Shown here: positions 46,048-62,443 of the stretch, piece by piece | Position numbering within the stretch: position 1 is the first letter of the stretch | How the letters are laid out: every line of letters begins with the position of its first letter | Origin: Desulfobacterales bacterium | GTDB taxonomy: Bacteria; Desulfobacterota; Desulfobacteria; Desulfobacterales; UBA5852 | DNA length: 64,000 bases | Direction of reading: 5' to 3' | NCBI GenBank assembly: GCA_963674755.2 | Contig: CAXXVS010000003.1 | Span: forward strand, 2,336,001 to 2,400,000 | Position numbers and translations under genes: made by a program | Notes under the pieces: generated by a model | The model's input: only the letters and a program-made list of their open reading frames with translations | Told to the model about the DNA's origin: nothing | Database searches by the model: none

Positions 46048-46851
46048 TCAGCCTGTCATGCATTGGGCCGGAGGCATGGCAGGGAGCATGGCAGCGGCCA
46101 GTTGTCCCAGAGATCCTGTCATTTGGGCCTGGCGATCGTGCCGGTGGTCAAATGCCACCAGAACGCCATCCTCCATGGCAACGGCATGGTCGCAAAAGCG
46201 TTTCACCAAGCGCAAATCGTGGGTGATGAATAAATAGGCCACACCTTCTTCCGAGCGTAAGTCATCCAGCAGATCGAGAATTTTGGCCTGTACAAGCATG
46301 TCCTGGCTAGATACGGCTTCGTCTAGAATAATGCAGCGTGGCTTGGCGGCAAGGGCTCGCGCAATCGAGATGCGCTGAAGCTGCCCCCCGCTAAACTGCG
46401 ATGGGTGTTTGGTCGCATCGTCTCTACGCAAGCCCACCTTTATCAGCAGATCCGCCACCCGTTCATCGAGGGCCCTGCCGCGCAACCGCTCGAAATTGCG
46501 CAAAGGCTCGGCAATGATGCTTTTCGCCGTGAGCCTTGGGTTTAGAGAGCCCACGGCATCCTGAAATACCACCTGCAAAGCACGCCGCTGATCACGATCA
46601 ATGTGCACACGGTTGCCAACCACCGTGGGTCTGCCTAGGATGCGCACTTCTCCATCCGTGGGAGCTTCGAGGCCCAGCATGATGCGCCCCAGCGTGCTTT
46701 TTCCTGATCCGCTACGGCCCACAAGCCCCACACATTCTCCCTCGGCGACGGAAAGGTTGACGCCCTTGAGGACGGGAACACGTTTAGCCCTGCTGAAAAA
46801 TCCACCGCACCTATAGGTTTTGGTCACCCCGTGCGCCTCGATGATGTTCAT
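46048..46851 (-). CDS. nikE: Nickel ABC transporter ATP-binding subunit
   Basis: GRSGSGKS, FSGGQLQRI, ILDEAVS; position in the operon. Confidence 0.85.
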   Translation of the reverse strand: MNIIEAHGVTKTYRCGGFFSRAKRVPVLKGVNLSVAEGECVGLVGRSGSGKSTLGRIMLGLEAPTDGEVRILGRPTVVGNRVHIDRDQRRALQVVFQDAVGSLNPRLTAKSIIAEPLRNFERLRGRALDERVADLLIKVGLRRDDATKHPSQFSGGQLQRISIARALAAKPRCIILDEAVSSQDMLVQAKILDLLDDLRSEEGVAYLFITHDLRLVKRFCDHAVAMEDGVLVAFDHRHDRQAQMTGSLGQLAAAMLPAMPPAQCMTG

Positions 46852-46864
46852 ACAGGACCTCCTG

Positions 46865-47695
46865 TCAGTTGCACCTGGCTTCCATGTCGATGCCGTACAG
46901 TCGATAATGGGCTTCCAGTAGAGAGATGGTATAGGGATGGCGCGGCTTATTGAAAACGGCCTGCACATTTCCGCGTTCTAATATCGCTCCTTCGCGCATC
47001 ACCAGCACTTCATCGGCCAGGTGTGCAATCACTGAAAGATCGTGGGTTACGAGAAGCACCCCAAGGTCCCGGTCGCGGACCAACGACGCCATAAGATCCA
47101 GGACACGCCTCTGGGACACCGCATCGAGATCGGTGGTGGCCTCGTCGGCCAGCAGGAAGTCGACATCGAGTGCCAAGGCCAACGCAATCATGACGCGCTG
47201 GAGCATTCCGCCGCTCATCTGAAAAGGATAGAGCGGCAGAATGGCTTCCGGCTCATCAAAGCCTACTTTGGCGAGCGAAGAACACCATTGCGGTTTGGTG
47301 TTGTCAAAACGGGACGCATGATGCGCCGCCAATGTCTCCCGAAAGTGGGTTTTAATGGTGCATACGGGATTAAAACAGCTTATCGGATTCTGGAGGATCA
47401 TGGCGATGCGACTGCCGCGCGATTCACGGGCCAGCGCGGCCTTCCGGGGCGCCAGGGGCATGCTGATCCCGTCCAGCAACACGGTACCCGCAACGAACAG
47501 TCCCCTGGGCGGCAGACCCATAATGGTCTGGCATGTGAGCGACTTCCCGCTGCCGCTTTCCCCCACCAGCCCGGTCACGCATCCCTTTTCCGCCGTAAAA
47601 CTCAACCCATTGACCAACGCCCTGTCGCCGGCATGGATGCTTAGATCGCGAACATTCAGATAGGCCCGGGAGCGGGCAAGCGCCGATGCTGTCAT
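46865..47695 (-). CDS. nikD: Nickel ABC transporter ATP-binding subunit
   Basis: [30 protein letters not shown]. Confidence 0.85.
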
Positions 47696-48593
47696 TGATA
47701 GGCCTCCTGAAGACTTTCGGAAGATGCCGCGGCCGCGCGGGGGGCGTTGTCCGCGACTTGCTGTTCCAGAGCCTGTGGGTCCAGCGCATCGCGCAGGGCG
47801 TCGCCAAGCAGGTTGAAGGCCATGACCGTGACGAAAATGGCCAAGCCCGGAACCATAATCAGCTCCGGATGTGTCCAGACATATTGACGCGCGTCCGCGA
47901 TCATGACGCCCCATTCCGGGGTCGGCGGTCTGACGCCCAGCCCAGAAAGGAAAGGCCCGAGACATGCATCATCATATGGCCGATATCAAGGGTGGCCAGG
48001 ATGGCCAACTGGGCGAAAACCGGGGGCAGAACGTGCCGCACCATCGTCATGAACCTTCCCGTGCCCGAAACCCTTGCCGCGAGTACATGCTTCCGATTTT
48101 TCAAGGCCAATACCAGACTGCGGATGATGCGTGCGTACCAGGCCCAATGGGTCAGGGACACGGCCAGAATGACATTGACGATTCCTGTCCCCAGCACCCC
48201 GATCATGAACATGGCCAGGATGAAGGTGGGGAAGGTGAGAAATACATCGCAAATGCGCATTAGGGTCGAATCAAAGGCCCCGCCCGCGTATCCCGCCGTG
48301 GCCCCTACGGCAAACCCAAACAACAGGATAACGCCCGCAATGATCGCCACAGCGCCCAGCGAGGTGCGGGCGCCGTAAAGAAGCCGCGACAGCACGTCCC
48401 GTCCGAGGTGATCGCAGCCCAGCGGATGAGCGCGGCTTGGTTCCGCAAACTTATCCGCCAGAGCGATTTCGGTGGGATCATGCGCTGTCAGAAACGGCGC
48501 GCACAGGGCGGACAAGGTCAGGATGAGCACGGCAACAATGGAAAAGGCCACAAGGCCCCGGCGCAGATACCGTTTTAACCCGTTGGGCGTCAT
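47692..48593 (-). pseudogene. nikC: Nickel ABC permease NikC with a 1-nt frameshift at 47941-47943 (possibly an assembly error)
   Basis: LGCDHLGRD, THWAWYAR; adding one G restores [24 protein letters not shown]. Confidence 0.85.
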
Positions 48594-49531
48594 TGGCCGC
48601 CTCCTTCATAGCGAATCCGCGGATCGAGCCAGGCGTAGCAGATATCGACAACCAGATTCATGGTGACAAAGATCGTGGTCATGATGAGAATAAAGCATTG
48701 CATGATCGGATAGTCGCGATTGTAAATGGCAGACACCGCATAGCGGCCCACTCCCGGCCAGGCAAAAATCGACTCGGCGATGACCGCCCCGCCGAAAAGC
48801 TCGCCCACATGCATGCCCACGGCCGTAATGACCGGGATGAGCGAGTTGACCAGCACATGTCGTCCCACCACCACGGACTCCGGCAATCCCCGGGCCCTGG
48901 CGTAGAGAACGTACCGCGAGTGCATGTTATCGAGCATATTGGCACGGATCAGCCGGGTGTTGATGCCCAGCGACATGAGGGACATGGTCAGCACGGGCAT
49001 CACCATGTAGGCGGGGCCGCCCTTGCCCATGGGCGGCAGCCAGCCAAGTTTGATCGAAAACAGCCAGACAAGAAGGAAACCGAACCAGAAGTTCGGCATG
49101 GATACACCGAAAAAACTTAGTCCCCGGGTGAGGTGGTCTGGCAGTTGGTCCTTTTTCAGCGCCGCAACCATGCCCAGGGGCACGCTTAGCACCAAGGTGA
49201 GCAGCAATGAAGCCGCGGCCAGGATAAGCGTGTTGGGAAGGTAGTAGAGAATTTCATCTAGCACCGGATTCTTGGTCACGTAGGAGCGGCCGAAGTCCCC
49301 CCGCACAGCCCGGCCAAGCCAATCCAGATATTGCACGTGCAGCGGGCGGTCCAATCCAAGCTCGGCACGCGCAACGGCCAGGGCCTGATCCGTAGGGGGG
49401 ATGTTGGACATCCGCAGATAGGACATGGCCGGATCCCCTTCGCCGAGGCGCAGAATGCCGAAGACTACCAGAGACACCGCCAGGAGGATGAGGGGCAGCA
49501 ACGCCAATCGCTTGAGAATGTATCGTAACAT
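48590..49531 (-). CDS. nikB: Nickel ABC transporter permease
   Basis: GDPAMSYLRMS, SMPNFW, YARARGL, IYNRDYP. Confidence 0.9.
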   Translation of the reverse strand: MLRYILKRLALLPLILLAVSLVVFGILRLGEGDPAMSYLRMSNIPPTDQALAVARAELGLDRPLHVQYLDWLGRAVRGDFGRSYVTKNPVLDEILYYLPNTLILAAASLLLTLVLSVPLGMVAALKKDQLPDHLTRGLSFFGVSMPNFWFGFLLVWLFSIKLGWLPPMGKGGPAYMVMPVLTMSLMSLGINTRLIRANMLDNMHSRYVLYARARGLPESVVVGRHVLVNSLIPVITAVGMHVGELFGGAVIAESIFAWPGVGRYAVSAIYNRDYPIMQCFILIMTTIFVTMNLVVDICYAWLDPRIRYEGGGQ

Positions 49532-49539
49532 GGCGGCGC

Positions 49540-51171
49540 CTATTGCTTTCGCATGGATTCAAAAGGGATCTCATGTTTGGTGGCGCCGAAACCGGTCCCC
49601 TCAAGATTTTCTCGGTGAACCATGATGGCCGTCATATACGAAAGTGGAAGATAGACGGCCTGCTCATGCAGTGTGGTCAGGATGTCGGCATACAGGCGGC
49701 GGCGTTCATCTTCGTTCACGGTCACAAGAACCTTACCGATTTCGGTATCGATAGCGGCCTTCATGGGCAATCCAAGCTGGGCCTGGTAGTCGGCATGGGA
49801 CGGTATGCGCATGGAACTGCAGAAGGAATGCGGATCGTAGGGCGTGCCCCAGGTGTCGCCAAAAATCAGGCCGAATTCACCGCTTTTTTGGCGGCTGTAA
49901 AAAGAGTCGCTTTCCTCTCCGATGAGATTTGCTTTCACCCCGATCTTCTTCAGGTAGCCCTGGAGCACTTCGGCCACTGATTTTTGCAAGGCGTCGTTGC
50001 CTACGAAACACAGATCTATGGCCAGTTCCTTGCCGTCCTTGGCGCGATAGACAGAACCCTTGGACAGAATCCAGCCCGCCCCGTCAAGTAGTCCGGCGGC
50101 TCCTGCCGGGTCATAGGCGAAAGGCGGAAGATCCAGATTGCAGTAGGGCATCGAAGGGGCGAAAATGGCATCGGCTTTTTCCTCCACGCCCAAGAAAATG
50201 TGATCCACCAACGCCTTTTTATCCACTGCGTGCAGGATCGCTTTGCGCACGGCGATTTCATTCGTGGGAAAACGGTTGGTGTTGAGGGCCAGGGCGCGAG
50301 TGGCCAGCGGCTGGGAGACAGCCGTGACAATGTCCTTCATCTCCCGGTAGCGTTCGAAGGTGTCCAGACCGATCTGTCCCGCACCGTGCCCGCCCGATCC
50401 GTAGATAAGATCGATTTCCCCTGTGTCGAAAGCCACTGCCCTGGCATTGGCATCCGGGATGACCTTGACGACGAGATGCTTCATCTTGGGTTTCTCACCC
50501 CAATAACGGTCATTGCGTTCGAAGACGTCGTACTCGCCCTTCACCATCTCGGTGACCTTCCAGGGGCCGGTGCCAATGGGAGCCTTGATGCCCTTGCTCG
50601 TGTCACCGTCGTCAGGGAAGGCCGCGGGGGCTAGGAAGCGGACCGGACGAACCAACGCGAGTTCTTGCAGAATGGGGTAATACGCATCCTTCAATGTCAA
50701 TTTCACGGTGTATTCATCGATGATGCGCACGGCCTCCCCCCCTGCAGCATCAACCGCATGAAGCTGATTGACAAGCTCCAACCAGTGGTGCCTTTCGTGG
50801 TTCTTGAGAACCGCGTCGAAATTCAACTTTACGGCCTGGGCGTTAAACGGCGTTCCGTCGGAAAAGGTTACACCTTTGCGAAGGTTGAAATTGTACTCCC
50901 GGCCATCCTCGCTGACGGTCCAGGACGCGGCAAGCCAGGGTGCCACTGAGCCGTCGGCCTGGTATTTTACCAGTGGTTCGTAAACCAAGGCTTGGGCGAA
51001 CATCTGGCTCGGGGAATAGAGATGGGGGTTAAGGGGTCCTACATTGCTCGACCAGGAGTAGACGAGAACCTGATCACTCTCAGGCGGCGCCGCAAGCGTA
51101 TTGGAGAGAGACAGAGAAACCGAGCAAAAAACCAGAACAAGGCCCAATATAACAAACCGGATATGCTTCAT
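49540..51171 (-). CDS. nikA: Nickel ABC transporter substrate-binding protein
   Basis: NVGPLNPHLYSP.QMFAQ, RHHWLEL, TWGTPYDPH, SMRIPSHADYQAQ (NikA signature). Confidence 0.92.
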   Translation of the reverse strand: MKHIRFVILGLVLVFCSVSLSLSNTLAAPPESDQVLVYSWSSNVGPLNPHLYSPSQMFAQALVYEPLVKYQADGSVAPWLAASWTVSEDGREYNFNLRKGVTFSDGTPFNAQAVKLNFDAVLKNHERHHWLELVNQLHAVDAAGGEAVRIIDEYTVKLTLKDAYYPILQELALVRPVRFLAPAAFPDDGDTSKGIKAPIGTGPWKVTEMVKGEYDVFERNDRYWGEKPKMKHLVVKVIPDANARAVAFDTGEIDLIYGSGGHGAGQIGLDTFERYREMKDIVTAVSQPLATRALALNTNRFPTNEIAVRKAILHAVDKKALVDHIFLGVEEKADAIFAPSMPYCNLDLPPFAYDPAGAAGLLDGAGWILSKGSVYRAKDGKELAIDLCFVGNDALQKSVAEVLQGYLKKIGVKANLIGEESDSFYSRQKSGEFGLIFGDTWGTPYDPHSFCSSMRIPSHADYQAQLGLPMKAAIDTEIGKVLVTVNEDERRRLYADILTTLHEQAVYLPLSYMTAIMVHRENLEGTGFGATKHEIPFESMRKQ

Positions 51172-51227
51172 CTTACACCCCTCTTTTGTTAGGACGCATT
51201 CGTGCAAGAAGGATTCGCTTCGCGGGC

Positions 51228-51282
51228 AAAAAAAAAACCACGAAGGTCATCCCCATTTGGGTTTGGTGGACCTTCGTGGCCT
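51228..51282 (-). promoter_or_regulatory. Leader attenuator with GCCACGAAGG motif (copy 1, nikA)
   Basis: GCCACGAAGGUC...GACCUUCGUGGU stem followed by a U run; motif at 51271-51280. Confidence 0.75.
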
Positions 51283-51397
51283 TGGCTGCTATAAATTTTA
51301 CCCGTTGCTAATCGGTAGCAAAGGCAGGTGATCGACAAATCTTGGTTTTAAAACTGAGTGCAAAACCACCGGCTTCAGCCGTATTTAGATCGCTGTT

Positions 51398-51425
51398 ATT
51401 AAACGAAGACCTCATTCGATGTCAA
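51398..51425 (-). promoter_or_regulatory. Candidate sigma70 promoter for the nik operon
   Basis: TTGACA-N16-TTTAAT on the minus strand. Confidence 0.45.
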
Positions 51426-51549
51426 TCTTTTTATAGGGATGCCATCCAAGCTGAAGGCCCCCTTATGATGAGGACAATCGCGCCCTCTTTGGGAGGCTAT
51501 CTGATGTTGTCCCCTGTGCGGAAGCGCCGCTCTTACAGCCGGCACGTCA

Positions 51550-52095
51550 TCAAGGACCTTCCAGATCCCGGTGGATTTGCAGGAGCCAGTCCGGGAAGCG
51601 TGGATTCTCCACACCGTGATAGGACTCGACATAGGGCTTGATATCGATCAGGGGACTGCCGTCCACCGCCTCCAGCCCTTTTACTTTGAGGATATGCCCT
51701 TCCCGCGCCAGCAGGGGCACGGTGGACACCAGGACCGGGTTGGGCCGGGCCGGACTGCGGGTGGCGAAGATGCCCTGGAGGGGCAGGTCCTTGCGTCCCA
51801 TGGGATGCACCTGGCGCAGATTCCTGCGTTCAGGGTCGATCAGGTGGGGCCAATAGAGCACCAGGATGTGGGAAAAGGCTTCGATGCCGTCCAGCAATTC
51901 GCGCCAGGGCTCGAAGATCACCAGCTCGCTGGCCGTGTTCTTGACCTGTTGGTGGTGTTCGCGAATCTTGTCCAGGCGTTCCCGAAGTTCGATATCCGAT
52001 TCACCGGCCTGCAACATGGGCGCTTTGATGGGACTGCGCACCTTCCCCACGGGGGTGAGCTGCAGGGGCAATGGCTTGTCTGACATATCGTTCAT
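51550..52095 (-). CDS. tsaA: TsaA/TrmO-family SAM-binding methyltransferase
   Basis: FSHILVLYW, GIFATRSPARPNP, DGSPLIDIKPY. Confidence 0.88.
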   Translation of the reverse strand: MNDMSDKPLPLQLTPVGKVRSPIKAPMLQAGESDIELRERLDKIREHHQQVKNTASELVIFEPWRELLDGIEAFSHILVLYWPHLIDPERRNLRQVHPMGRKDLPLQGIFATRSPARPNPVLVSTVPLLAREGHILKVKGLEAVDGSPLIDIKPYVESYHGVENPRFPDWLLQIHRDLEGP

Positions 52096-52910
52096 TGGCC
52101 CTGTGCCCCCCTCTCTTTACGCTTCCCGGTCAGCAGCGCATCGGAAATTCCCTCAAGCGCTGCGGATGCCGGTGCGACACTTACCGATCTCCCCTCGAGA
52201 CCGGCCGCCTGGATGGTCTCCTGATACCCGACCGCGCCGATTACCCGGACATCATGGTCGCACAGGCGCTCCACGACCTTTTGCTTCTGCGTGTCCGAAG
52301 TGATTTTGTTGAGGACCGCCCCGGCAAAGGCCGCGCCCGAAGATTGCGTCAGATCCATCACTTTCTCCGCCAGCGTGATGGATTCCAGGGACGGCTCGAC
52401 CACACAGATGACCCCGTCCACACTGGTTTCAACCCCCCGGCCGAAATGCTCGAGACCGGCCTCCATGTCCACGAGCATGACTTCCCCGGCCGCCAGTTCG
52501 AATTTTTTCAGAAATTCGCGCGTCACGGTGCCCATGGGACAGGCGCAGCCCTCCAGGGCCTGATGGATTTTGCCCGTCGAAATCAGTTTCAATCCATCCC
52601 GGACGGCCATGTAGTCGGACGGCATGGAGCGGCTGGTGATTTTTTCGGTTTCCCAGATAGACATGGACGGTTCATCATCCCCCTTGGAGAAGCGGGCGAT
52701 CATTTTCTTCTGGACCGCCTTCTTGCCGCCAATGAAATCCATCAGGGGCTGAGGAGATTCTTCAAAACCGAGCATCCAGGCCAGACTGGTATTCGATTCG
52801 TCGGAATCCAGGACGATGACCTCCCGGCCCCGGTCCTTGAACATTTGTGCAAGCATGCACACAACCGTGCTTTTCCCGCTGCCGCCTTTGCCGCAAACGC
52901 ATAGTTTCAT
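52092..52910 (-). CDS. cooC: CooC-like nickel-insertion ATPase
   Basis: GKGGSGKS deviant Walker A, EGCACP, VDMEAGLEHFGRG. Confidence 0.85.
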   Translation of the reverse strand: MKLCVCGKGGSGKSTVVCMLAQMFKDRGREVIVLDSDESNTSLAWMLGFEESPQPLMDFIGGKKAVQKKMIARFSKGDDEPSMSIWETEKITSRSMPSDYMAVRDGLKLISTGKIHQALEGCACPMGTVTREFLKKFELAAGEVMLVDMEAGLEHFGRGVETSVDGVICVVEPSLESITLAEKVMDLTQSSGAAFAGAVLNKITSDTQKQKVVERLCDHDVRVIGAVGYQETIQAAGLEGRSVSVAPASAALEGISDALLTGKRKERGAQGQ

Positions 52911-52966
52911 CGTTTCTCCCTTGTTGAAGTTAAATCGTGTCGATAACGCCGCTTGTCAGTAGCATT

Positions 52967-53158
52967 TCAATCGGTTTCGAAGATGATTTTGTGATCTCCC
53001 AGATTCAATGCTTTGATGCGGCCCCTGAGCATTTTCTGGTCGCCGAAGATGCCGACTATCCGCCAATGTTCGTCATCCTGCGGTTCCAGAATATCCACGG
53101 ACGCCATGATGAGTTCTTCCCGCCCATCGTTGATCCGGTATACGTCAGCTTCACACAT
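52967..53158 (-). CDS. cooT: CooT-family nickel-binding protein
   Basis: MCEADVY..IMASVD..IFGDQK..HKII. Confidence 0.88.
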   Translation of the reverse strand: MCEADVYRINDGREELIMASVDILEPQDDEHWRIVGIFGDQKMLRGRIKALNLGDHKIIFETD

Positions 53159-53570
53159 TTTCGATGGCCTCCCTTGTCATTTGGATAGATGTTTCCATCA
53201 TTTGTTGGAAGGATTCGTTTGCCAAACCAAGGATAAAGACGTTTTCCTGGGCCAGCGGAAGAAGGATTTTCCTGGCGGTACTGGCCATGACGGCTTCCGC
53301 CATTTGGGGGGCGATCTCTCCCATCATGGCATTGGCCCAGGTGATGCCAACAGGGCCGATGATGCAATCCGCCTGGGAAACGGTTCGACAGATCGCCTCC
53401 TCACCGGACACTACCTTGTTGGCGCCCGCCTTATGCATCTGGGCCGTGGCAATGGCATTGGCACCCAAACCGATAAGTTCGATGCTTTCGCCGTAAATGG
53501 CTTTCAAACTCTTGATCATGGCCGCACCGATACCGCCGCCCTGGCCGTCGATCACGCAAACACATTTCAA
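53151..53570 (-). CDS. DUF3842-family protein
   Basis: VIDGQGGGIG, GANAIATAQM, MGEIAP; TTG start with GGAGG RBS. Confidence 0.8.
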   Translation of the reverse strand: MKCVCVIDGQGGGIGAAMIKSLKAIYGESIELIGLGANAIATAQMHKAGANKVVSGEEAICRTVSQADCIIGPVGITWANAMMGEIAPQMAEAVMASTARKILLPLAQENVFILGLANESFQQMMETSIQMTREAIENV

Positions 53571-53600
53571 GCGTCCGTCCTCCCTCCATTCTCAACTCAG

Positions 53601-53679
53601 AAAATAAAAAAGCCACGCGCTTCTGGGATTCCTATAGGGAACCATCAGCCTTCGTGGCTTAATCTGCCTTTTGCGGCAG
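53601..53679 (-). promoter_or_regulatory. Leader attenuator with GCCACGAAGG motif (copy 2, DUF3842-cooT-cooC-tsaA)
   Basis: AAGCCACG...CGUGGCUU stem + UUUUAUUUU; motif at 53649-53658; upstream hairpin CUGCC-GCAAAA-GGCAG. Confidence 0.75.
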
Positions 53680-53693
53680 TAAATTATACGTCA

Positions 53694-53722
53694 ACTTTAT
53701 CGACTTGGTTTCCTTTTGTCAA
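53694..53722 (-). promoter_or_regulatory. Sigma70 promoter
   Basis: TTGACA-N17-TAAAGT on the minus strand. Confidence 0.6.
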
Positions 53723-54008
53723 TCCGTCTCCTATCGAGGTTTTCCGTCTGACGGCAACACTTCGTCCCATCGAATGGGATGCATTCCGGTTTTGTTAATG
53801 AGATATCCAAAAAATTGGAAGATTTCGGTTGAACATTGTCCGATAGTGCGTTATCTATCGATCCTAACAGGCGAGGACGAATCTGCCCGCTTTTTTCTGA
53901 CTTTTTCCAGAAGTAAAAACCTCCGTCGGATCGAAATCCGAGATTTTCCGCTTTTTCTAGTTTTACCGCCTGGTATCCATTTTGTTACCATTGGTTTGAT
54001 CATAAACC

Positions 54009-54066
54009 GGCCACGAAGGCTTTGGCGCTTGCCCACAGACGGACAGGCGGTCGAGGCCTTTTTTTA
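54009..54066 (+). promoter_or_regulatory. Leader attenuator with GCCACGAAGG motif (copy 3, DUF4198 operon)
   Basis: Motif at 54010-54019; AAGGCUUUGGC/GUCGAGGCCUU stem + U run. Confidence 0.7.
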
Positions 54067-54124
54067 TGTGGAGTTTCATCTGTTATCTCTTTTTCATAGG
54101 GGAACGTCTGAAAGGAGCAAGATC

Positions 54125-54898
54125 ATGCAGAGAAAAATGATTGTTTTGATGATTGCGGTATTGGCTGTGGGCATGGCGGTGCAGGTGACCTGGGCCCACG
54201 AATTCATCGTCCAACCTGTTCAACTGGCCGCTTCGGTTGGTCACAAGCTTCCATTGAGTGTCGTTTCGGCGCATGTTTTCGTGGTCAGCGAAGAAATGGA
54301 ACCCATAGAGCAGGTCGATTTGGCCCTGGTTAAAGGCGACACCCGGGAGAAGGTTTCCCTGGTGCCCAATGAAATGCTGCTGACCCTTGACGGCGCTGTC
54401 GAATTGAAACAGCAAGGTACCTATGTCCTGGCCGGACATCGCAAGGGCATCCTTTGGACTCATACCACCAAAGGCTGGCAACAGGCCGGGAAAAAGGGGC
54501 TGCAGGGCGTCATCTCGAGCGGGAAGTACGAAAAATTTTGTAAAACCCTGGTCGTCTCGGGTCAAGCCGACGATGGCTACAAGAAGGTGGTGGGAGACCG
54601 CCTGGAAATCGTGCCGATCGATGACCCCCAAAAGGTGGCGGTGGGTCAAGATCTTAACGTTCAGATTTTATTCGATGGCAAGCCGATGCCAACCGAGGTC
54701 TATGCCACCTACGACGGTTTTACCACGGTACCGAACACCTATGCCTATTTCACGGAGACCGATGAAAACGGCCGAGCCCGTATCCGGCTTACCCATGACG
54801 GTACTTGGATGGTGCGTGTCCAACACAAAGTGAACGAAGCGACGGATGACTATGACCAGTATATATTGCGGGCCGTGCTTGTTTTCGGTGTGCGCTGA
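54125..54898 (+). CDS. DUF4198 periplasmic protein (Ni/Co uptake-associated)
   Basis: Signal peptide ending TWA-HEF (N-terminal His), LEIVP, LFDGKP, TDENG. Confidence 0.8.
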   Translation: MQRKMIVLMIAVLAVGMAVQVTWAHEFIVQPVQLAASVGHKLPLSVVSAHVFVVSEEMEPIEQVDLALVKGDTREKVSLVPNEMLLTLDGAVELKQQGTYVLAGHRKGILWTHTTKGWQQAGKKGLQGVISSGKYEKFCKTLVVSGQADDGYKKVVGDRLEIVPIDDPQKVAVGQDLNVQILFDGKPMPTEVYATYDGFTTVPNTYAYFTETDENGRARIRLTHDGTWMVRVQHKVNEATDDYDQYILRAVLVFGVR

Positions 54899-55383
54899 TG
54901 ACGTTTGACATCCGATTCGCCTGTCTGTCGGCCGTGTTCGGGATTCTTCTTGGCGGATCATCCGCTTGTTGGGGGCACGGTACCGGCTACCGCCTTTTGG
55001 AAAACACGGCCGATGTGGCCATGGAGTTCCGCTATTCTTCGGGGGAACCCATGGCCTATGCCGAGGTGTTAATCTGGCACCCTGAGGACACGAAAATAGA
55101 ATATCAAAACGGACGTACGGACAGGCTCGGGCGATTCGCTTTTTTGCCGAATGCTCCGGGTAACTGGAAAGTAGTCGTCAAGGATGGCATGGGACATCAG
55201 GTCACCGCTAACTGCCCGGTCGATACGGCTTCGCCGGCGGGACCTTCACCGGAATCCCGCGCAACGGGGGCGCCGCCGCCGAGAGTCCCGGGTGCACTTT
55301 TAGGACTCAGCCTATTGGCGAATATGACTTTCTGTATCGCGATCGTGCGCCGTTTCCGGAAACTACGCACCCGCAAAGCGTAA
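54898..55383 (+). CDS. Ni/Co transport accessory membrane protein (NikL/CbiL-like)
   Basis: Signal peptide + HG, YSSGEPMAYAEV, GRTDRLGRFAF, DGMGH, C-terminal TM helix. Confidence 0.65.
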   Translation: MTFDIRFACLSAVFGILLGGSSACWGHGTGYRLLENTADVAMEFRYSSGEPMAYAEVLIWHPEDTKIEYQNGRTDRLGRFAFLPNAPGNWKVVVKDGMGHQVTANCPVDTASPAGPSPESRATGAPPPRVPGALLGLSLLANMTFCIAIVRRFRKLRTRKA

Positions 55384-55482
55384 TTCCCCATACCGCCGGT
55401 TGACATGAAAACCGGCGGTATCTCTATCTTCAAGACAATCAGGGAAGAGAGTGACCATTGCCCGGGAAGTGGCGCAATGATG

Positions 55483-56262
55483 TCATGCCTCGGTCAATTT
55501 TTCTGCCATAGGACGCAAAACCGTTTCCAAAGTTTGCGAGATGCGTTTGGCCTCGGCCTCCGATCCGGCAAATCCGATCCAGCAGTCCCAAATCTCGTCT
55601 TCGTCTTGCCAGCATTGACCGTTGGGCTTTAAGCGATCCGGGTGCCCGCAGTTTTCCAGCACGCGGTAGAACAGCATGATCTTCCGGACGAGATCGTCTT
55701 CGGTATCCTCGCCGCCCTTTTCTTGGTAGATGGGCAGCATGCCGTCTTCCAAACTCGGTAGCACCGTTCGCCTGAAATCGAACAGCAGGCGGGGCAGAGC
55801 CGCGTTGACCCAGTCGCTGTTGCGGCTTGCCAGATCCCGGCAATAGCTGCTTTGGCATTCCGCGTACACCCGATCGAGCTTGGCGGCCAGTGCTTCCTGT
55901 TCGGTGCCGCTGTTTTCAAGATTCCCCAGGAAGCCGTCGCGCCATTGGCGAAAATCGGCGATGATGGCTTTGGCGGCCGCCGCATCTTTCACTTGGCGGA
56001 CAAAGGCTTTCTCATCCAGATCGAGGGTATACGACAACGCCACCGTTATTTCCTGGCGTTGATACGAAGCGCCGCCGCCCGGTGCCACGAGAAACGCACA
56101 CTGCATCTTTACATGCTGCGCGGCGTTGACAAGCAGCCGGAATCCACCGTTGACGGAGACCAGCGGACGGCTATTAAACCGACCGCGATCGTTCAGATCG
56201 AACACACTGGGTGTTTTGTATTTGGGCTGATGCAACACATAGAATCCTTTCGGTACCTGCAT
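55483..56262 (-). CDS. Hypothetical protein
   Basis: 259-aa ORF with AAGGAG RBS; last gene of the hyd-TBDR-FmdE run. Confidence 0.65.
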   Translation of the reverse strand: MQVPKGFYVLHQPKYKTPSVFDLNDRGRFNSRPLVSVNGGFRLLVNAAQHVKMQCAFLVAPGGGASYQRQEITVALSYTLDLDEKAFVRQVKDAAAAKAIIADFRQWRDGFLGNLENSGTEQEALAAKLDRVYAECQSSYCRDLASRNSDWVNAALPRLLFDFRRTVLPSLEDGMLPIYQEKGGEDTEDDLVRKIMLFYRVLENCGHPDRLKPNGQCWQDEDEIWDCWIGFAGSEAEAKRISQTLETVLRPMAEKLTEA

Positions 56263-56330
56263 GGGTTTTTTCTCCTTTTTGCAAACAAGTGATATTTGGC
56301 ATCTGGCCGCCGACCGGTGCCGACCGGCAT

Positions 56331-57296
56331 TCAATGCAAACGATACCGCCGACCGTCGGTTTTGAGCTGTTGAAAACACGGGGTACAATAGGCCTTGCGG
56401 TCATATTCGACGGCATGCGACTGTAACATCTGCTCGCGGCAGGCCGCGCATTGACGGTAGATGCCGGCTGCTTCGGCATGGGGCGGAAACGGAGCAACGG
56501 GTTGCACGGTATAGAGTTCTTCCGGTTTTCGGGAGAGCAAAAAGGCCACGCGATGGTCCAGGAGATGCTGAAATTGCACAACCTCCTCCATCACAGGCCG
56601 CTCTTCCGCAATGCTGACGGCCAGACGGTGGTATTCGTCCGCATCGTCAAAGGTCTGAGGCCGCAGGGAAAACCGTAAAGCAAGGTCGGCGCCTGTGACG
56701 ACCAGCGTATAGACATGCTTGCCATAATCCACGATCCGCAAGCGTTGGTTGCCCATGGTCGCGCCGAGCAGGATCTGAATGGCGTCCAGGGCGGATGTGC
56801 TGTTTTCGGCCACGATCGACAGGCTCCGGTCAAGCGTTCCGGCTTTTGAAAGGAGACGGTGGGCGTACTCGCAAAATTTGCCGCCGATGACCAGATCCGG
56901 ACAGATGTGACCGTGGAAGTCCACCACACGCTTGAATGTCATGTTAACCAGCATTTTCCGGTCCTCCCGATACCATGTCATCAGTTCGTGATCGTGCCAT
57001 ATCCGAAACCCCAACACCCAGAATCCCTTGGGCCGCGGCGGTGAAGGGGGCATCTCGCAAAACTGGAAATACAGGAAATAGAGTTCGCCTTCGGTATCGA
57101 CAATCAGGTACGCATTAAGGGGCTGCTTCCGGCCCGTTCGGAAGCGGCCTACAACGCGCGTCACTCGGTGCGTCGTGTCCTTGAAACGGAAGGAAAGCGG
57201 CTGCTGTCGCAGGATGTCGAAGTGCACCGCTATCTTTTCCTGAATAGGATCGAGCAGCTCGTCGTAGATCGAACGCAATGCTTCCGCAGGTGTCAC
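56331..57296 (-). CDS. FmdE-family protein with N-terminal extra domain and C-terminal zinc finger
   Basis: DFHGHICPDLVIG, DAIQILLGATMGN, CAACRE...YCTPC. Confidence 0.85.
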   Translation of the reverse strand: MTPAEALRSIYDELLDPIQEKIAVHFDILRQQPLSFRFKDTTHRVTRVVGRFRTGRKQPLNAYLIVDTEGELYFLYFQFCEMPPSPPRPKGFWVLGFRIWHDHELMTWYREDRKMLVNMTFKRVVDFHGHICPDLVIGGKFCEYAHRLLSKAGTLDRSLSIVAENSTSALDAIQILLGATMGNQRLRIVDYGKHVYTLVVTGADLALRFSLRPQTFDDADEYHRLAVSIAEERPVMEEVVQFQHLLDHRVAFLLSRKPEELYTVQPVAPFPPHAEAAGIYRQCAACREQMLQSHAVEYDRKAYCTPCFQQLKTDGRRYRLH

Positions 57297-57312
57297 GGAT
57301 GCCGGTCTCCTT

Positions 57313-59448
57313 TCAAAAGACGATTTTCCAGAGACATGCCAATGATCGTCCTGGTTCGCTCAATTCGACCCCCCGTGATGTGGAGAGGAAATTGACATAG
57401 TCTTCATCCAGCAGGTTTTTCGCGGCCAGGGCAATTTCCTGACGGAGACCGGCAATTTCGAAGCGATATCCGGCATACAAATTGACAGTCTGCCAGCTTT
57501 GACCCTCGGTGACATCGTCCGGCACGTCGTGCTGGGCCGCGGCCCAATCCATTGCGAGATCGGCCCAGAAACCGGTATCACCGGCGGCTTGGTAGCGCAG
57601 CCCCAGGCAGCCGTTCAAGGGGGCGATAAAGGGCAGCGGTTCATCGGTGGTGCGATTGCGTCCCTGGGTCCAGGCCACATTGCCATAAAGTTCCCAGGTT
57701 GTTGCCAGGAACCATTGGGCCTCAAGTTCGACGCCATAAATGACAGCGCGGTCCACATTGGCCATTTGGCGCGCGGCCGGACGGAGTTCTTTTTCCGTAA
57801 TGAGGTCTTTGAGAAAATTGGCATAGGCGGCGGCGGAAACATGCAGCGGTGTCGTGTCATAATGCAGGCCGCCTTCGAAAAAGAAAGACCGTTCGGGATC
57901 GAGCTCGGGATTACCGTACAGCTCGATCCCGCCGCCAAGGTTGATGTATTTGAAGCGGTCCATGAGATCCGGCGCGCGATAGCTGGAGGCGGCGATCAGC
58001 GTTGCCGCCCAGGGCGCGGCAACATGCCAGGTCAGCCCCAGATGCGCCTGCCAGCTGACATCGCTCTGGGTCTGCCCTTCACGCTTGAGGATCGGCGTCA
58101 GGGCCGGGTTGGGCGGATCGATCCAGTCGTAGAGGTCGTCGCTGCGGGATTCGATATAATCGATCCGCCCGCCGATATTCAGATTCAGCGTTTCAGTGGC
58201 CTGCCAGTCGTCTTCCATAAAAAGGCCGCCGGTGTCCTGGGAAACGTTCCCCAGGGAACTGTCGATGCCGGTCAGGCCGTTTTTGAAATTCCGGACCCGC
58301 TCGGTGTTGTCAATGCCCCAATAGCCGTAATCAAGACCAACGACGGTGGTGTTGTGTGCCCATTGCAAGCGGTTGGACCATTTCAGGCCCAGGGTCTGGT
58401 GATCGGCCCCCGGCTTCAGCGATTGCAACGGTGACGACGCCGGAAACGCATCCAGCAAAACTTGCCGCTGGATCTCCTGGAAATAGAGTTTGAGCTGGGA
58501 TTCCGTGATCACGGAACCGGTTGGCTCCACGGTATGGGTCAGGGCACACAGGGTGCGGTTGATGCGGGAATAGGTGGCGTCCGGTCCCTCCGGCAGCGAG
58601 AGGCCCTTGCCGGGAATGCCGATATCGTTCCCCTGGGCATACTGGACATCGAGTTCCGTCTGGTGGTGTGCGTTCCACTGATAGGCCCCGCTGAGATGGC
58701 CGTGTTCGTCGCGGTACTGGCTGTTGGGCACTTCCTGGTGGTCGGCCCCTTCCCGATCACCGTAATCACGGTAGCTGCCCGAGCCGAAGATCCAATAGCG
58801 CTCGGATGCCACGGCGGCGTTGGCATAGATGCCGGCCCCCGAGGGATTGTCGCCGTAGTGGGCGATAGCTTCACCCGTGCCTTCCGCCTCTGGAGCGAAA
58901 CGGCCTTTTTTGGTGATCACGTTCACCACCCCACCGATGGAGCCGGACCCGTAAAGGGCGCTGATGGGTCCCTTGAGCACCTCGATGCGCTCGATATCGT
59001 AAGGGTTGACCAGCCCGAACTGGGCGTTGATATCCGTCGCCGTATTGACACGGCAGCCGTCAATCAAAAAGACGACGCTGTTGCGGCCCATCCCCCGGAT
59101 GTTGATACCGGCCCCCCAGGGCGAATCCGAAGCTTTCTCCACCCCGGGGATGCGCCGGGTGATATCCGTGATGGTTTCGGGCTGGACCTCCTCGATTTCT
59201 TCCGCCGTGACCACTCCGATACCGCCCGGTGTAAGGGAAATCGGTATCGCTGTGCCGCGGGCGGTGACCACCATGGGCGCGAGATCGACTTGGGGCTCCG
59301 CCGGCGTCTGCGCATCGGCCTGGCTGTGGCAGGCCGGCCACAGCAGGAGCATTCCCGCCATGCCAAGGCTTCCCAGACGGCGCGCAAGGCCCTTGATTCC
59401 ATACAGAAACTGCGGTCTGCCGTGCCCAAGCCGATAACGCCCGATCAT
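57313..59448 (-). CDS. TonB-dependent outer-membrane receptor
   Basis: MVVTARG TonB box, IERIEVLKGPISALYGSGSIGGVVNVITK, GNPELDPE, C-terminal Phe. Confidence 0.92.
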   Translation of the reverse strand: MIGRYRLGHGRPQFLYGIKGLARRLGSLGMAGMLLLWPACHSQADAQTPAEPQVDLAPMVVTARGTAIPISLTPGGIGVVTAEEIEEVQPETITDITRRIPGVEKASDSPWGAGINIRGMGRNSVVFLIDGCRVNTATDINAQFGLVNPYDIERIEVLKGPISALYGSGSIGGVVNVITKKGRFAPEAEGTGEAIAHYGDNPSGAGIYANAAVASERYWIFGSGSYRDYGDREGADHQEVPNSQYRDEHGHLSGAYQWNAHHQTELDVQYAQGNDIGIPGKGLSLPEGPDATYSRINRTLCALTHTVEPTGSVITESQLKLYFQEIQRQVLLDAFPASSPLQSLKPGADHQTLGLKWSNRLQWAHNTTVVGLDYGYWGIDNTERVRNFKNGLTGIDSSLGNVSQDTGGLFMEDDWQATETLNLNIGGRIDYIESRSDDLYDWIDPPNPALTPILKREGQTQSDVSWQAHLGLTWHVAAPWAATLIAASSYRAPDLMDRFKYINLGGGIELYGNPELDPERSFFFEGGLHYDTTPLHVSAAAYANFLKDLITEKELRPAARQMANVDRAVIYGVELEAQWFLATTWELYGNVAWTQGRNRTTDEPLPFIAPLNGCLGLRYQAAGDTGFWADLAMDWAAAQHDVPDDVTEGQSWQTVNLYAGYRFEIAGLRQEIALAAKNLLDEDYVNFLSTSRGVELSEPGRSLACLWKIVF

Positions 59449-59469
59449 GCGGTCGTTTCCTTTCCCATA

Positions 59470-59712
59470 TTATAACAAGCCGGTTTTAATGCGCACTTCG
59501 GGCAGGGAGCCCAACTGTCCCGCCAGGGCGCCCACCTCGTCGGTGGTGGCCTCGATGGCCAGGGTGATTAGCGTCAGGTTTTGCGCCTGTAAGGGAACGG
59601 CCATGCGCCCGATGATCAAGCGTTCATGGAGCGCTAATGTCTTCTGCAGTTCGGGCAGGTGGCGCATCGGGTGGCGCACCAGGAGACCGATGAAGCCGAT
59701 TCTTTTCTCCAT
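59470..59712 (-). CDS. TM1266-family iron-only hydrogenase system putative regulator
   Basis: MEKRIGFIGLLV..IIGRMAVP..TTDEVGALAGQLGSLPEVRIK. Confidence 0.85.
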   Translation of the reverse strand: MEKRIGFIGLLVRHPMRHLPELQKTLALHERLIIGRMAVPLQAQNLTLITLAIEATTDEVGALAGQLGSLPEVRIKTGLL

Positions 59713-59912
59713 GGGACGTTCTACTTTCCACAGGGTCGAACGTATCCGCACGTCCGGCTTGCGCTGTCCGCTGGCGCCGGCGGCGGGCATAACAATACGA
59801 ACGCGCCGCATAGGGATGACCGGCGCGTATTGAAAGCTCCGGCCCTGAGGTTCAGAAGAACTCCTTCCCGCAGGCCAGAGGGGGTGATGAAACGATGGAT
59901 GGAGGAAATGAT

Positions 59913-60257
59913 CTATACGGCCAGTTCGACCCCCTTGGATTTCAGGTTCTGAATGCTGGCACTGCGATCGACATAGTGGGTATGGAGCAGGTGGTGCGAC
60001 ATGTGGCCGCAGGGCCCGTCATGCAGGAAGCCGTCCTTATCATCATAGAGTTTCTGGACCATGGGATTGTCCTGGGATTTGCGGATTTTGTAGACATTGG
60101 CGTCGGCCTTATAGACGGACTCCTGGCGCTGTCCCACGAAATCGGGTTCATCGGCCAGAACCGGCCGGGCCAGGGGAAAACCGACCGCCGCATATCCGGC
60201 TGCGATGCCAGCCGCTTTGATGAAGCCGCGGCGTGATAGTAACAATTGTTCGCTCAT
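59913..60257 (-). CDS. hydB: Periplasmic [FeFe]-hydrogenase small subunit
   Basis: Tat motif SRRGFIK, RKSQDNPMVQKLY, SHHLLHTHYVDRS. Confidence 0.92.
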   Translation of the reverse strand: MSEQLLLSRRGFIKAAGIAAGYAAVGFPLARPVLADEPDFVGQRQESVYKADANVYKIRKSQDNPMVQKLYDDKDGFLHDGPCGHMSHHLLHTHYVDRSASIQNLKSKGVELAV

Positions 60258-60271
60258 AAGGTTCCTCCCTT

Positions 60272-61525
60272 TCATCCTGCGTGGCGCATGGTTAGCCGTT
60301 TGTTTATCGCCAGGACCCCGTTGCGGAGCAGTGACGCCGAGCGTACATTGGGATCGAGCGGCTGCCCGCCGCCATTGACGCAGCCCCCCGGGCAGGCCAT
60401 GATTTCAATGAAGTGATAAGGGGATTTGCCTGTGCGCACCTCGTTGCAGAGCTGGGCGGCATTCGCGAGGCCGCTGGCCACCGCCACCTTGACGGTGCCG
60501 AAGCCCGGAACCGGGATGTCGGTGGCGTTGATGCCCTCATGGGTGCGTACCACCTTGATGTCGGGGTCGGACAGTTTTTGCTTGGAGAGAACTTCATAGG
60601 CCAGACGCAGGGCGGCTTCCATAACCCCGCCGCTGTTGCCGAAAATGGTGGCGGCGCCCGTGGACATGCCCAGGGCGGGGTCCGGTTCTCGCTTGGGCAG
60701 GGCCTGGAAGTCGATGCCGGCCGTCTTGATCATGTAAGCCAGTTCGCGGGTATTAATAGTGGCATCGATGTCCTGGAAACCACTGTCCGCCATTTCCGGC
60801 CGCAGCCCTTCGTATTTTTTGGCGATACAGGGCATGATCGAGACGGTGTAGATCTTCTGGGCCGGAATCTCGGTCACTTCGGCACCATAGGTTTTGGCCA
60901 GGGGCCCCAGCATGCCGATGGGCGATTTGCAGGTGGATACATGGGGCAACAGGTCGGGGTAGAAGGATTCCACAAACTTGATCCAGCCCGGACAGCAGGA
61001 TGTGAACTGCGGCAGGGGTTTGGCCTTGTCGGGGTGGCTGATCCGTTCGATCAGTTCGGTGCCTTCCTCCATGATGGTGACATCGGCCGTGAACTCGTTG
61101 TCCCATACATAATCGAACCCCAGCGCTTTCAGGGCGGCATGCATTTGGCCGCCAGCATAGGTGCCGACATCGTATCCGAAGCATTCGGCCAATCCATAGC
61201 GCACGGCCGGGGCTGGCATGGAAACGACGATCGTATTGGGATCCTTCAGTTTGGCGAAGATTTCATCCACATAGCTGACGCCCTCGTAGATCGCTCCATA
61301 GGGGCAGTGGATCAGACATTGGCCGCAGTTCATGCAGGCCGACGGGTTGATCACCTGGCGCGTGCCGTTTTCGTTGATGGGCTGGATAGCGCCGGTGGCA
61401 CAGTGGTTCTCGCATTCCCCGCAGGCTTCACACTTGGTGGCGTCGACCTGGACAAAGAAAATATGATCCGGATCGACTTGCCGCGGCGCATTGGTCGCGT
61501 ACATCACCTTTTCCATTTCTCGCAT
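60272..61525 (-). CDS. hydA: [FeFe]-hydrogenase large subunit (group A)
   Basis: Two CxxCxxCxxxC motifs; H-cluster motifs TSCCPGW, MPCIAKKYE, EIMACPGGCVNGGGQP. Confidence 0.95.
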   Translation of the reverse strand: MREMEKVMYATNAPRQVDPDHIFFVQVDATKCEACGECENHCATGAIQPINENGTRQVINPSACMNCGQCLIHCPYGAIYEGVSYVDEIFAKLKDPNTIVVSMPAPAVRYGLAECFGYDVGTYAGGQMHAALKALGFDYVWDNEFTADVTIMEEGTELIERISHPDKAKPLPQFTSCCPGWIKFVESFYPDLLPHVSTCKSPIGMLGPLAKTYGAEVTEIPAQKIYTVSIMPCIAKKYEGLRPEMADSGFQDIDATINTRELAYMIKTAGIDFQALPKREPDPALGMSTGAATIFGNSGGVMEAALRLAYEVLSKQKLSDPDIKVVRTHEGINATDIPVPGFGTVKVAVASGLANAAQLCNEVRTGKSPYHFIEIMACPGGCVNGGGQPLDPNVRSASLLRNGVLAINKRLTMRHAG

Positions 61526-61597
61526 TCCACATTCCTCCTTTGAGGGGGTTGATGAGTCATCAGGCACAAAGCGTGCCCACATGCTGGCGGTCTCTCT

Positions 61598-62179
61598 TTA
61601 AACCGTCCGGCAACCGTAACGTTTTTCCCAAAGAGTGCTTTCATCCGTCATGATGGGGCGGCAGCTCACGATCCAAAGTGCTTGGCGCAGCAGTCCTTTC
61701 AGGTTGGGGGGGCCGGTAAGCACCTTGCGTGCCGTTTCGAGATGATCCCAAGGATCCAGGACCATCTCGATCTGATCGCACACGCATTTTTTAAGCACGA
61801 CCGCCGCCTCGCCCGGAAGACGGAAGATATTTCCGGCTTCGGTCGCACCGTTGGCGGCATTGACCAACCGGACCTCAATGGGGATCGATTGGTCACCTGC
61901 GCCTAGTTCATCTTGCGGGGCCGGCCTGAGTTCAGGCAGATTGAGCCACCAATTGTAATGGGATGCACTCCATCCGGCGCCGAGGTTGCATAGGAAGAAG
62001 AGAACGCGGTCTTCCACATACACGCCAAACGTCACCCTGCCGTGCCTCAGCGCTGCCACTTCGGCCTCAGCGGGCCGGATGGCCGCTTTGATCAGGGTGT
62101 GCCCCAAGCGCGTATAATTATAATGGGTTCCCGGCTTCAATTCCGTCAGGCCGCTGATGCGGCATTGGCCCTGTGGCAT
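61598..62179 (-). CDS. Hypothetical protein, first gene of the hydAB unit
   Basis: 193-aa ORF with AGGTGG RBS, 73 bp before hydA. Confidence 0.65.
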   Translation of the reverse strand: MPQGQCRISGLTELKPGTHYNYTRLGHTLIKAAIRPAEAEVAALRHGRVTFGVYVEDRVLFFLCNLGAGWSASHYNWWLNLPELRPAPQDELGAGDQSIPIEVRLVNAANGATEAGNIFRLPGEAAVVLKKCVCDQIEMVLDPWDHLETARKVLTGPPNLKGLLRQALWIVSCRPIMTDESTLWEKRYGCRTV

Positions 62180-62242
62180 AAAACCACCTATGCAATGTCA
62201 ACAACGGTTAAAAAGGCGCCTGGAACGCAGGCTTGAGCAGAA

Positions 62243-62297
62243 ATGCAAAAGCCACGTCGGCCCGGCACTCAAAAAAACGTGCGGCCTTCGTGGCCTT
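62243..62297 (-). promoter_or_regulatory. Leader attenuator with GCCACGAAGG motif (copy 4, hydAB unit)
   Basis: AGGCCACG-AA-GGCCGCAC...GUGC-CG-GGCC-GA-CGUGGCUU + UUGCAUUU; motif at 62285-62294. Confidence 0.7.
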
Positions 62298-62443
62298 TCT
62301 AGATGAAGAGGGAGTAAAACAGGGTTACGAATGAAAGTACCACCATTTCTCTATGGTGGTTGATGTCTTCTACCTGAAAATACTGCTCTTGTAAAGAATT
62401 TCCTTTATAATATTCGCTCTTTTTTGCCGCTGACCGGTGCTCG

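Follow-up and report, generated by a model that had tools for sequence, protein, structure and literature searches.

The closest described relatives of the RNA element reported here are the leaders recognized by ANTAR proteins, such as the targets of EutV, NasR and AmiR. As set out in the part of the source on which we draw (PMC3369931), these leaders consist of two short hairpins joined by a variable linker, and an intrinsic terminator shares sequence with the second; the protein, a dimer, attaches to both hairpin loops. They are OFF by default, their stems are short, and the information lies in the loops, which have six bases with A at position 1 and G at position 4 (PMC3369931, same part). 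Here we describe an element of like layout in a 64,000-nucleotide stretch of DNA from a Desulfobacterales bacterium (GTDB lineage UBA5852; GenBank assembly GCA_963674755.2, contig CAXXVS010000003.1, positions 2,336,001 to 2,400,000 of the forward strand), hereafter called the window. The tandem hairpins of the ANTAR leaders and the overlap with, and exclusion of, a terminator are both found in the element. Its second hairpin (P2), however, has a five-base loop, ANGAA, with G at position 3, and its first (P1) a loop of four to six bases ending in GAA. Because the loops differ, we do not class it as an ANTAR target despite the like layout, in agreement with a preliminary description of this locus, made by a model from the sequence, that had pointed out the pentaloop. 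A further difference is that the element's targets are nickel and cobalt (Ni/Co) uptake genes, for which the signal would shut read-through off. A scan for the ANTAR domain (PF03861) gave no match in this genome, and none in 14 controls either.

The NiCo (czcD) riboswitch (RF02683) likewise acts at the RNA level on Ni/Co transport genes in anaerobes. It controls exporters; our element, by contrast, heads importers. NiCo is a four-way junction that binds the metal directly (PMC11672702, in the part covered), whereas the folded element consists of hairpins and has no junction. The preliminary description had set the element apart from NiCo, and RF02683 indeed gave no match in the window at the gathering score, none at E<=10 over 50000-64000 and none at E<=1 in 20 outside loci; a genome-wide search returned no match, the controls being likewise empty. 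The HMP-PP (thiS) riboswitch resembles the element in having conserved bases within its terminator stem (PMC6478431, in the part covered), but it has another sequence and other genes, whereas the element has repeated GAA-loop hairpins and co-occurs with a protein. NikR shares the element's target class, nickel importers (PMC11672702, in the part covered), but is a DNA-binding repressor, and it is largely mutually exclusive both with the element and with DUF3842, a protein family discussed below. No Rfam 15 family covers the element: cmscan of the window matched only a cobalamin riboswitch at 44418-44603, and among the 20 outside loci three gave weak miRNA hairpin matches, far below gathering. 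The element is probably protein-dependent attenuation in kind, and is neither NiCo, nor thiS, nor any Rfam 15 family.

Results

Anatomy of the leader element

The 10-mer GCCACGAAGG occurs exactly at 51271-51280 (-), 53649-53658 (-), 54010-54019 (+) and 62285-62294 (-), and no fifth exact copy is present in the window. This is the set of sites given in the preliminary description, and the gene map and domain scans bear out its statement that all four copies lie 5' of, and sense to, the units that they head (Table 1). Words with a single mismatch number ten in the window, including 51237-51246 (+), which is the 3' arm of copy 1 itself. Others, at 34722 and 36083 (+) and at 19342, 25019, 39270 and 43632 (-), have no covariance-model hit at E<=5.

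P2, of the form RCC-ANGAA-GGY, at the same time supplies the 5' arm for a terminator that is long and interrupted; the terminator's U-tract follows next, just before the ribosome-binding site. For the four window copies, the terminator form folds at -22.7 to -26.6 kcal/mol, versus -12.2 to -17.6 kcal/mol with the small hairpin enforced. These constrained folding energies support the proposal that the terminator stem and the RGCC-ACGAA-GGYY hairpin are mutually exclusive. The same proposal foresaw a larger stem and U-tract at every copy, which fits less well at copy 4, where the terminator ends in UUUUGCAUUU, weak as a U-tract, and at copy 3, where the terminator stem takes in the GGCU half of the small hairpin but not the rest. 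The terminator is preferred over the P2-enforced form by 6.8-15.2 kcal/mol in seven copies from this genome, and by 11.7 kcal/mol on average over 120 distinct elements; with the terminator favored by about 7-15 kcal/mol, the default state would be OFF. A simple terminator scanner missed copies 1-3, the stems of which are long and interrupted. Our covariance model, trained on a set that includes copies 1, 2 and 4, scored copy 1 at 46.9 bits and copy 4 at 34.7 bits; copy 3, which lies outside the training set, scored 19.4 bits (E 0.036). Between copy 2 and the end of its TTGACA-17-TAAAGT promoter lie 35 nt, in line with the preliminary description.

P1 provides evidence of a different kind, since the upstream region lay outside the search pattern. 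In 76 of 118 leaders, the 130 nt upstream contain a hairpin of four or more base pairs whose loop ends in GAA, compared to 7 on the antisense strand and 5.05 in shuffled sequence; it mostly lies 40-70 nt upstream of P2. The stricter form C-N1,2GAA-G was found in 56/118 leaders versus 3.4, and an inner terminator loop of like form in 18/120 elements versus 1.1. The commonest P1 loops are AGAA, AAGAA, UGAA and AUGAA. Upstream hairpins had been described for window copies 1-3, and all three are there; copy 4 has one in addition, and the loop ends in GAA at copies 1, 3 and 4 but not at copy 2. Across this genome, five of the six copies with an ACGAA loop carry the upstream GAA hairpin, the sixth being copy 2 with its GCAAAA loop.

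Compensatory changes are seen in both alternative structures. Loop base 2 of P2 pairs with its terminator partner throughout 65 matches (C-G 41, U-A 14, U-G 5, G-C 4, A-U 1), and the P2 outer pair is G-C in 33, G-U in 14, A-U in 14 and mismatched in 4, with no A-C; all 14 copies that start with A have A-U. The 3' arm is perfectly complementary in just 7 of the 120 distinct elements, which suggests that the 5' arm is under a constraint of its own. Weighing against the table of pairs is its composition: it takes in 20 loci chosen by eye for complementarity and 30 chosen by model, and two of its rows are inner hairpins. The terminator pairing figure is therefore biased, and the gene context of variant elements (see below) serves as the independent check.

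These features bear on the idea that the element is a very small terminator-embedded riboswitch, similar to HMP-PP (thiS), with Ni2+, Co2+ or a metal complex as its direct ligand. Its conserved bases do lie inside the terminator 5' arm, as in HMP-PP riboswitches (PMC6478431, in the part covered), a GAA hairpin is missing from the 130 nt upstream in 42 of the 118 leaders, and in some leaders (L022 and L047, by eye) so few bases separate the element from a -10-like box that P1 has little space. However, about nine conserved bases, a free 40-70 nt spacer and repeated like loops suit a multimeric protein better than a ligand pocket. Moreover, a ligand controlling importers must favor termination, an outcome toward which folding alone is already tilted by about 12 kcal/mol, and the element tracks DUF3842 across genomes. 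We consider direct ligand binding improbable.

The element across the genome

In the 6.7-Mb genome, GCCACGAAGG has 43 exact matches versus 32-41 expected from Markov models. At this chance frequency the word alone is uninformative, and the feature of interest is the 10-mer coupled to a terminator. The terminator form is found at six of the 43: the four window copies, a copy at C1:65735 that heads DUF4198-cbiM-nikL-cbiQ-cbiK-cbiO (names except DUF4198 by eye), and one at C1:782030 that heads a second DUF3842-cooT pair. Among 43,774 RCC-N5-GGY words, ACGAA is the top terminator-coupled loop (5/56 coupled; p 3.7e-6 before correction for 1024 loops, the loop having been picked from the window beforehand). 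A seventh copy at C3:2420534 (-), about 20 kb past the window end, has the loop GAGAA with its 3' arm changed to match and was missed by the covariance model; the gene behind it looks, by eye, like the DUF3450/ExbB (TonB/ExbB-type) operons behind other copies.

It is very improbable, and by now largely refuted, that a word shared by chance or through descent is all that unites these sites, be they ordinary terminators, copies of a REP-like repeat or DNA operators. The chance frequency of the bare 10-mer would suit such an origin, as would a few elements that read as terminators on both strands (L039 among them) and a separate palindromic repeat family in this genome (Table 1). The latter carries CCACGAAGG, then a second CACGAAG and a doubled complementary arm; it resembles REP sequences or insertion-sequence ends and is able to mimic the element. 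Against this stand the compensatory pairs in two exclusive structures, the restriction of upstream GAA hairpins to the sense strand, and the placement in leaders before metal-uptake genes in several phyla, while a DNA operator would not tolerate the variable spacing seen. The genome-wide scatter named beforehand as the mark of a simple repeat was not found, as the six to seven copies in 6.7 Mb all lie sense to metal-related units. Between copies 2 and 3 there is no palindrome with 6-7 bp arms and a 10-19 gap, and hence no NikR-type operator there, and a check of reading frames over the element revealed no leader peptide common to element leaders.

Targets in other genomes

A strict pattern search over GTDB genomes yielded at least 119 matching loci, which belong to Desulfobacterota, Nitrospirota, Clostridia and Actinomycetota, and a reversed-pattern control gave far fewer matches in the phylum sample. 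In Clostridia, the strict pattern matched in 6 of 151 genomes versus 4 of 151 for the reversed control. Targets were annotated for the 80 loci with flanks, minus one duplicate and two without a downstream frame, the first frame being picked mechanically; 39 short loci were left out. Of the resulting 77 first downstream genes, 46 are of uptake type (CbiM 9, CbiQ 1, DUF4198 4, TonB receptor 9, periplasmic binding 5, FecCD 2, SBP5 2, DUF3450 3, ExbB 1, OprB-like 2, MetA-like 6, ECF-S 2) and 6 belong to the nickel-handling families CooT, DUF3842, FmdE or TrmO. Variant elements, which have a different loop base or an A-U outer pair, precede the same genes, the first being of uptake type in 21 of 31 cases.

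The first downstream genes thus serve mainly, though not exclusively, in metal uptake: 14 of the 77 first genes are of other kinds, eight of them methyltransferases, and 11 have no family, which counts against a regulon confined to metal uptake. The link to nickel and hydrogenase drawn in the preliminary description stands for Ni/Co uptake and needs correction for hydrogenase, since the enzyme in the window is of the iron-only [FeFe] type and no hydrogenase is found among the 77 and 31 annotated outside downstream genes. Nor is there a thiS among these; one ECF S-component has a weak ThiW match below the cut-off.

Four loci (L018, L040, L046, L047) carry two elements, a few hundred to about 1,200 bases apart, before successive genes. 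In one atypical locus (L183, G226:C25:17099 +), the element precedes a glycyl-radical enzyme and its activase, then DUF3842. A pattern with a four-base AGAA loop, applied to the 151 Clostridia, was rejected because it picked mostly ordinary terminators, with DUF3842 in 10 of 28 carriers, the base rate.

Candidate readers

This genome has no NikR_C match (97% completeness; positive controls matched) and three copies of DUF3842, two of which stand under the element. Across 201 genomes of the phylum, DUF3842 is present in 76, NikR in 99 and CooT in 119, and DUF3842 and NikR occur together in 10. The 36 genomes listed among the matches as carriers of the canonical element (two further matches are unlisted) have DUF3842 in 34, CooT in 36 and NikR in 4 cases. 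The covariance model, run on 150 genomes (taken as G000-G149 from the family tallies, with 36 candidates scored per genome, so that counts are floors), matched in 46 of 58 genomes with DUF3842, in 6 of 92 without it and in 4 of 33 with CooT but no DUF3842; four of the six carriers without DUF3842 have E above 0.004. Among clostridial carriers outside the seed, DUF3842 is present in 5 of 5, versus a base rate of 53/150, and CooT in 2 of 5. As read from coordinates, 71 of the 76 genomes have cooT no more than about 400 nt behind DUF3842; cooT aside, no shared DUF3842 neighbor was seen by eye in 35 mostly clostridial loci, the neighbors of which were not run through Pfam.

The window CooT matches PF10133, superimposes on 6fan with Z 11.7 and rmsd 1.3, and has the Cys that is invariant in 43 sequences; it thus has the CooT fold and Cys2. 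CooT binds one Ni per dimer through Cys2 with a Kd of 9 nM, and its role is unclear (PMC6006190, in the part covered). The predicted fold of DUF3842 is a generic small alpha/beta Rossmann/flavodoxin-like domain (pLDDT 68.8; best Z 7.0). A PDB sequence search gave weak Rossmann matches only, an Atlas search no usable match, and a literature search one unrelated paper only. The DUF3842 paralog in the window lacks the otherwise conserved C-terminal EPLPH motif, with its possible metal-ligand His, which the other two copies in the genome keep.

Several observations weigh against DUF3842-CooT as the reader. Carrier genomes are related rather than independent, so that Fisher p-values are too strong and the tables should be read as a pattern, not a p-value. 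No covariance-model match was obtained in 12 of the 58 DUF3842 genomes, and 48 of 53 DUF3842-bearing Clostridia have no pattern match, a gap that the four-base-loop pattern left unfilled. Conversely, five element carriers (G059, G136, G169, G201, G203) have no DUF3842 match, in Clostridia two seed genomes of unknown completeness lack it, and the element persists in 7 of the 8 genomes where NikR and DUF3842 coexist. Fold searches with DUF3842 returned no clear RNA-binding match, and its mean net charge is about neutral (-0.2), that of CooT acidic (-4.0). The comparison of CooT with the Sm/Hfq fold followed the JGI label 'predicted RNA-binding protein' and gave only Z 2.7-2.9 against Hfq, a match too weak either way. 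Finally, the element lies directly upstream of DUF3842 in only 6 of 43 genes examined, 40 of these loci having been chosen for a neighboring cooT.

The same attenuator might therefore be read by another RNA-binding protein, with DUF3842 and CooT merely co-inherited as members of the nickel pathway. The charge and fold of both proteins, the five carriers without DUF3842 and the glycine-rich DGQGGGIG loop of DUF3842, which looks like a nucleotide-binding enzyme site, all fit such an arrangement, as does the position of two of the three DUF3842 copies in this genome under the element itself. Yet a pathway protein would be expected under NikR too, whereas DUF3842 and NikR overlap in 10 of the 201 genomes versus about 37 expected. 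In addition, 37 of the 43 examined DUF3842 genes are not under the element, and, judged from coordinates, elements often stand right after cooT and before uptake genes, a regulator-attenuator-target layout that the window also displays. We regard another reader as unlikely, though less so than a riboswitch.

Downstream units in the window

Unit 1 contains an apparent frameshift in nikC near 47900-48000 (-), where the frame spans 8-215 of the 277-position NikC profile before running into unrelated residues; this could be a real break or an assembly error. Directly after nikE, at 45615-45923 (-), is encoded a very histidine-rich 102-aa protein to which neither Pfam nor NCBIfam assigns a family; it is likely to store nickel or act as its chaperone. 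The cobalamin riboswitch (+, 113.7 bits) precedes a CbiK-type cobaltochelatase at 44696-45607, which suggests that cobalt use is under control separate from the element.

In unit 4, hydAB encodes a [FeFe] group A hydrogenase, not a nickel enzyme (TIGR02512 above cut-off), and a TM1266-family putative iron-only hydrogenase regulator lies at 59470-59811 (-), between hydB and the TonB receptor. The distal TonB receptor and FmdE genes are typical element targets. The 193-aa gene after copy 4 matched hypothetical clusters only in a sequence search. Just upstream of copy 4, a DmeF Co/Ni efflux transporter (62444-63400, -; above cut-off) has no element of its own. Elsewhere in the genome, a stand-alone cooT near C2:2447628 follows parA-parB; some 2 kb further downstream is a gene that by eye resembles DtxR/MntR regulators, and no element was seen in the 400 nt upstream of this cooT.

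Table 1. Coordinates of the element copies, their leaders and the downstream units (window positions, except where a contig is given)
Feature	Position	Strand	Description
Copy 1	51228..51281	-	Small hairpin GGCC-ACGAA-GGUC (51281-51269) = terminator 5' arm; 3' arm fully complementary; U10 (51237-51228); heads nikABCDE
Upstream hairpin, copy 1	51370..51381	-	CGGC-UGAA-GCCG
Copy 2	53601..53659	-	Small hairpin AGCC-ACGAA-GGCU (53659-53647); interrupted terminator; U6-A-U4; heads DUF3842-cooT-cooC-trmO
Upstream hairpin, copy 2	53664..53679	-	CUGCC-GCAAAA-GGCAG; loop ends AAA, not GAA
Sigma70-like promoter, copy 2	53694..53722	-	TTGACA-17-TAAAGT; 10/12 consensus positions; consensus match only
Upstream hairpin, copy 3	53926..53941	+	UCGGAU-CGAA-AUCCGA
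Copy 3	54009..54065	+	Small hairpin GGCC-ACGAA-GGCU (54009-54021), 3' half opens shifted terminator stem; U7; heads DUF4198 + NikL-like gene
Copy 4	62241..62295	-	Small hairpin GGCC-ACGAA-GGCC (62295-62283); long stem; weak tract UUUUGCAUUU; heads unit 4
Second short hairpin + U5, 3' of copy 4	62213..62232	-	Possible back-up terminator
Upstream hairpin, copy 4	62339..62360	-	ACCACCAU-AGAGAA-AUGGUGGU
Unit 1, nikABCDE	46048..51207	-	Nickel ABC importer; NikA, NikB above NCBIfam cut-offs
Unit 2, DUF3842 gene	53151..53570	-	139 aa; candidate reader or partner
Unit 2, cooT	52973..53161	-	62 aa, Cys2 conserved; overlaps DUF3842 end; candidate nickel sensor
Unit 2, remainder	51550..52910	-	cooC-like MinD/ParA-type ATPase + trmO/tsaA-like gene; families matched CbiA/MinD/ParA, CooC label from the preliminary description
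Unit 3	54125..55383	+	DUF4198 protein + NikL-like ECF subunit (NikL-like match below cut-off)
Unit 4	55483..62179	-	Hypothetical 193 aa, [FeFe] hydrogenase large + small subunits, TM1266 regulator, TonB-dependent receptor, FmdE-domain protein, hypothetical 301 aa
CCACGAAGG palindromic repeat	C1:250439, C1:265458, C2:521320, C3:2704672, C3:1587341, C3:1403937		Separate repeat family

Discussion

A Ni/Co-linked RNA attenuation regulon, as first suggested for this locus, is supported by strand-specific dual GAA hairpins, by compensatory changes in both alternative structures, by some 100 outside gene contexts and by the absence of any Rfam match in the window and the outside loci. That a real RNA attenuator operates in these leaders is, on this comparative evidence, highly probable. 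We propose that the switch is probably flipped by the small DUF3842-CooT protein pair rather than by nickel on the RNA, the assignment of the proteins being correlational. The whole model, a protein-dependent attenuator of nickel (and cobalt) acquisition read or gated by DUF3842-CooT, has in our estimate a probability of about 0.55.

According to this model, a dimeric or oligomeric protein would grip P1 and P2 of the nascent RNA by their GAA loops and keep P2 folded, so that the polymerase reads through. Since the targets are importers, read-through would be expected under nickel scarcity. The factor would be DUF3842-CooT, with CooT sensing nickel via Cys2 and DUF3842 acting as the reader or an essential partner; nickel-loaded CooT would then turn antitermination off. 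This is the weakest step of the model. In NasS-NasT, a ligand-sensing protein reportedly gates an RNA-binding partner, NasT being an ANTAR protein released by nitrate, and the proposed pair of CooT (sensor) and DUF3842 (reader) may be analogous. DUF3842 differs from NasT in having no ANTAR match in the domain scan, and its RNA binding is putative.

Nickel is favored over cobalt as the signal because NikA is above its cut-off, because of CooT and the mutual exclusion with NikR, and because the window's cbiK has a cobalamin riboswitch of its own. With CbiM, cbiK and tetrapyrrole methylase among the neighbors, the signal may instead be cobalt. Copy 4 is the least certain member of the regulon, given its weak U-tract and the absence of hydrogenase behind outside copies. 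If it does belong, it would switch on the nickel-free [FeFe] hydrogenase and the TonB receptor at nickel shortage, and since NiFe hydrogenase genes are also present in this genome, a nickel-sparing switch would fit. The literature searched contained no paper on a nickel-dependent switch to [FeFe] hydrogenase. It also contained no description of the leader, in a search that took in the main text of PMC5737381, with supplements and most subscription papers outside its reach.

It is possible, though we hold this more tentatively than the attenuator model itself, that DUF3842-CooT is a metal sensor of a new kind, which reads repeated GAA-loop hairpins as a nickel-gated antiterminator and takes the place of NikR in a large part of Desulfobacterota and in some Nitrospirota, Bacillota and Actinomycetota. 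In the part covered, a 2024 review of bacterial metal sensing contains neither 'antiterminat' nor 'CooT' (PMC11672702); given that silence, protein antiterminators gated by a metal would add a new class to the known sensors. If correct, the model would also provide a regulatory function for CooT, so far viewed as a CO dehydrogenase chaperone of unclear role, and nickel shortage in this genome would in addition turn on a nickel-free hydrogenase.

The element tags several uncharacterized genes as probable nickel-acquisition genes, including DUF4198, DUF3450, MetA-like and OprB-like outer-membrane proteins, FmdE and SAM methyltransferases. The locus described here belongs to a regulon with seven copies of the element, all in one nearly closed genome that lacks NikR, and the candidate regulator pair is encoded between the regulon's targets. 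NikR is absent from 102 of the 201 sampled genomes of the phylum, about half, and in such genomes the DUF3842-CooT system would serve as a substitute. These anaerobes depend on nickel enzymes, and the element together with DUF3842-CooT provides a testable account of how nickel uptake may be controlled without NikR.

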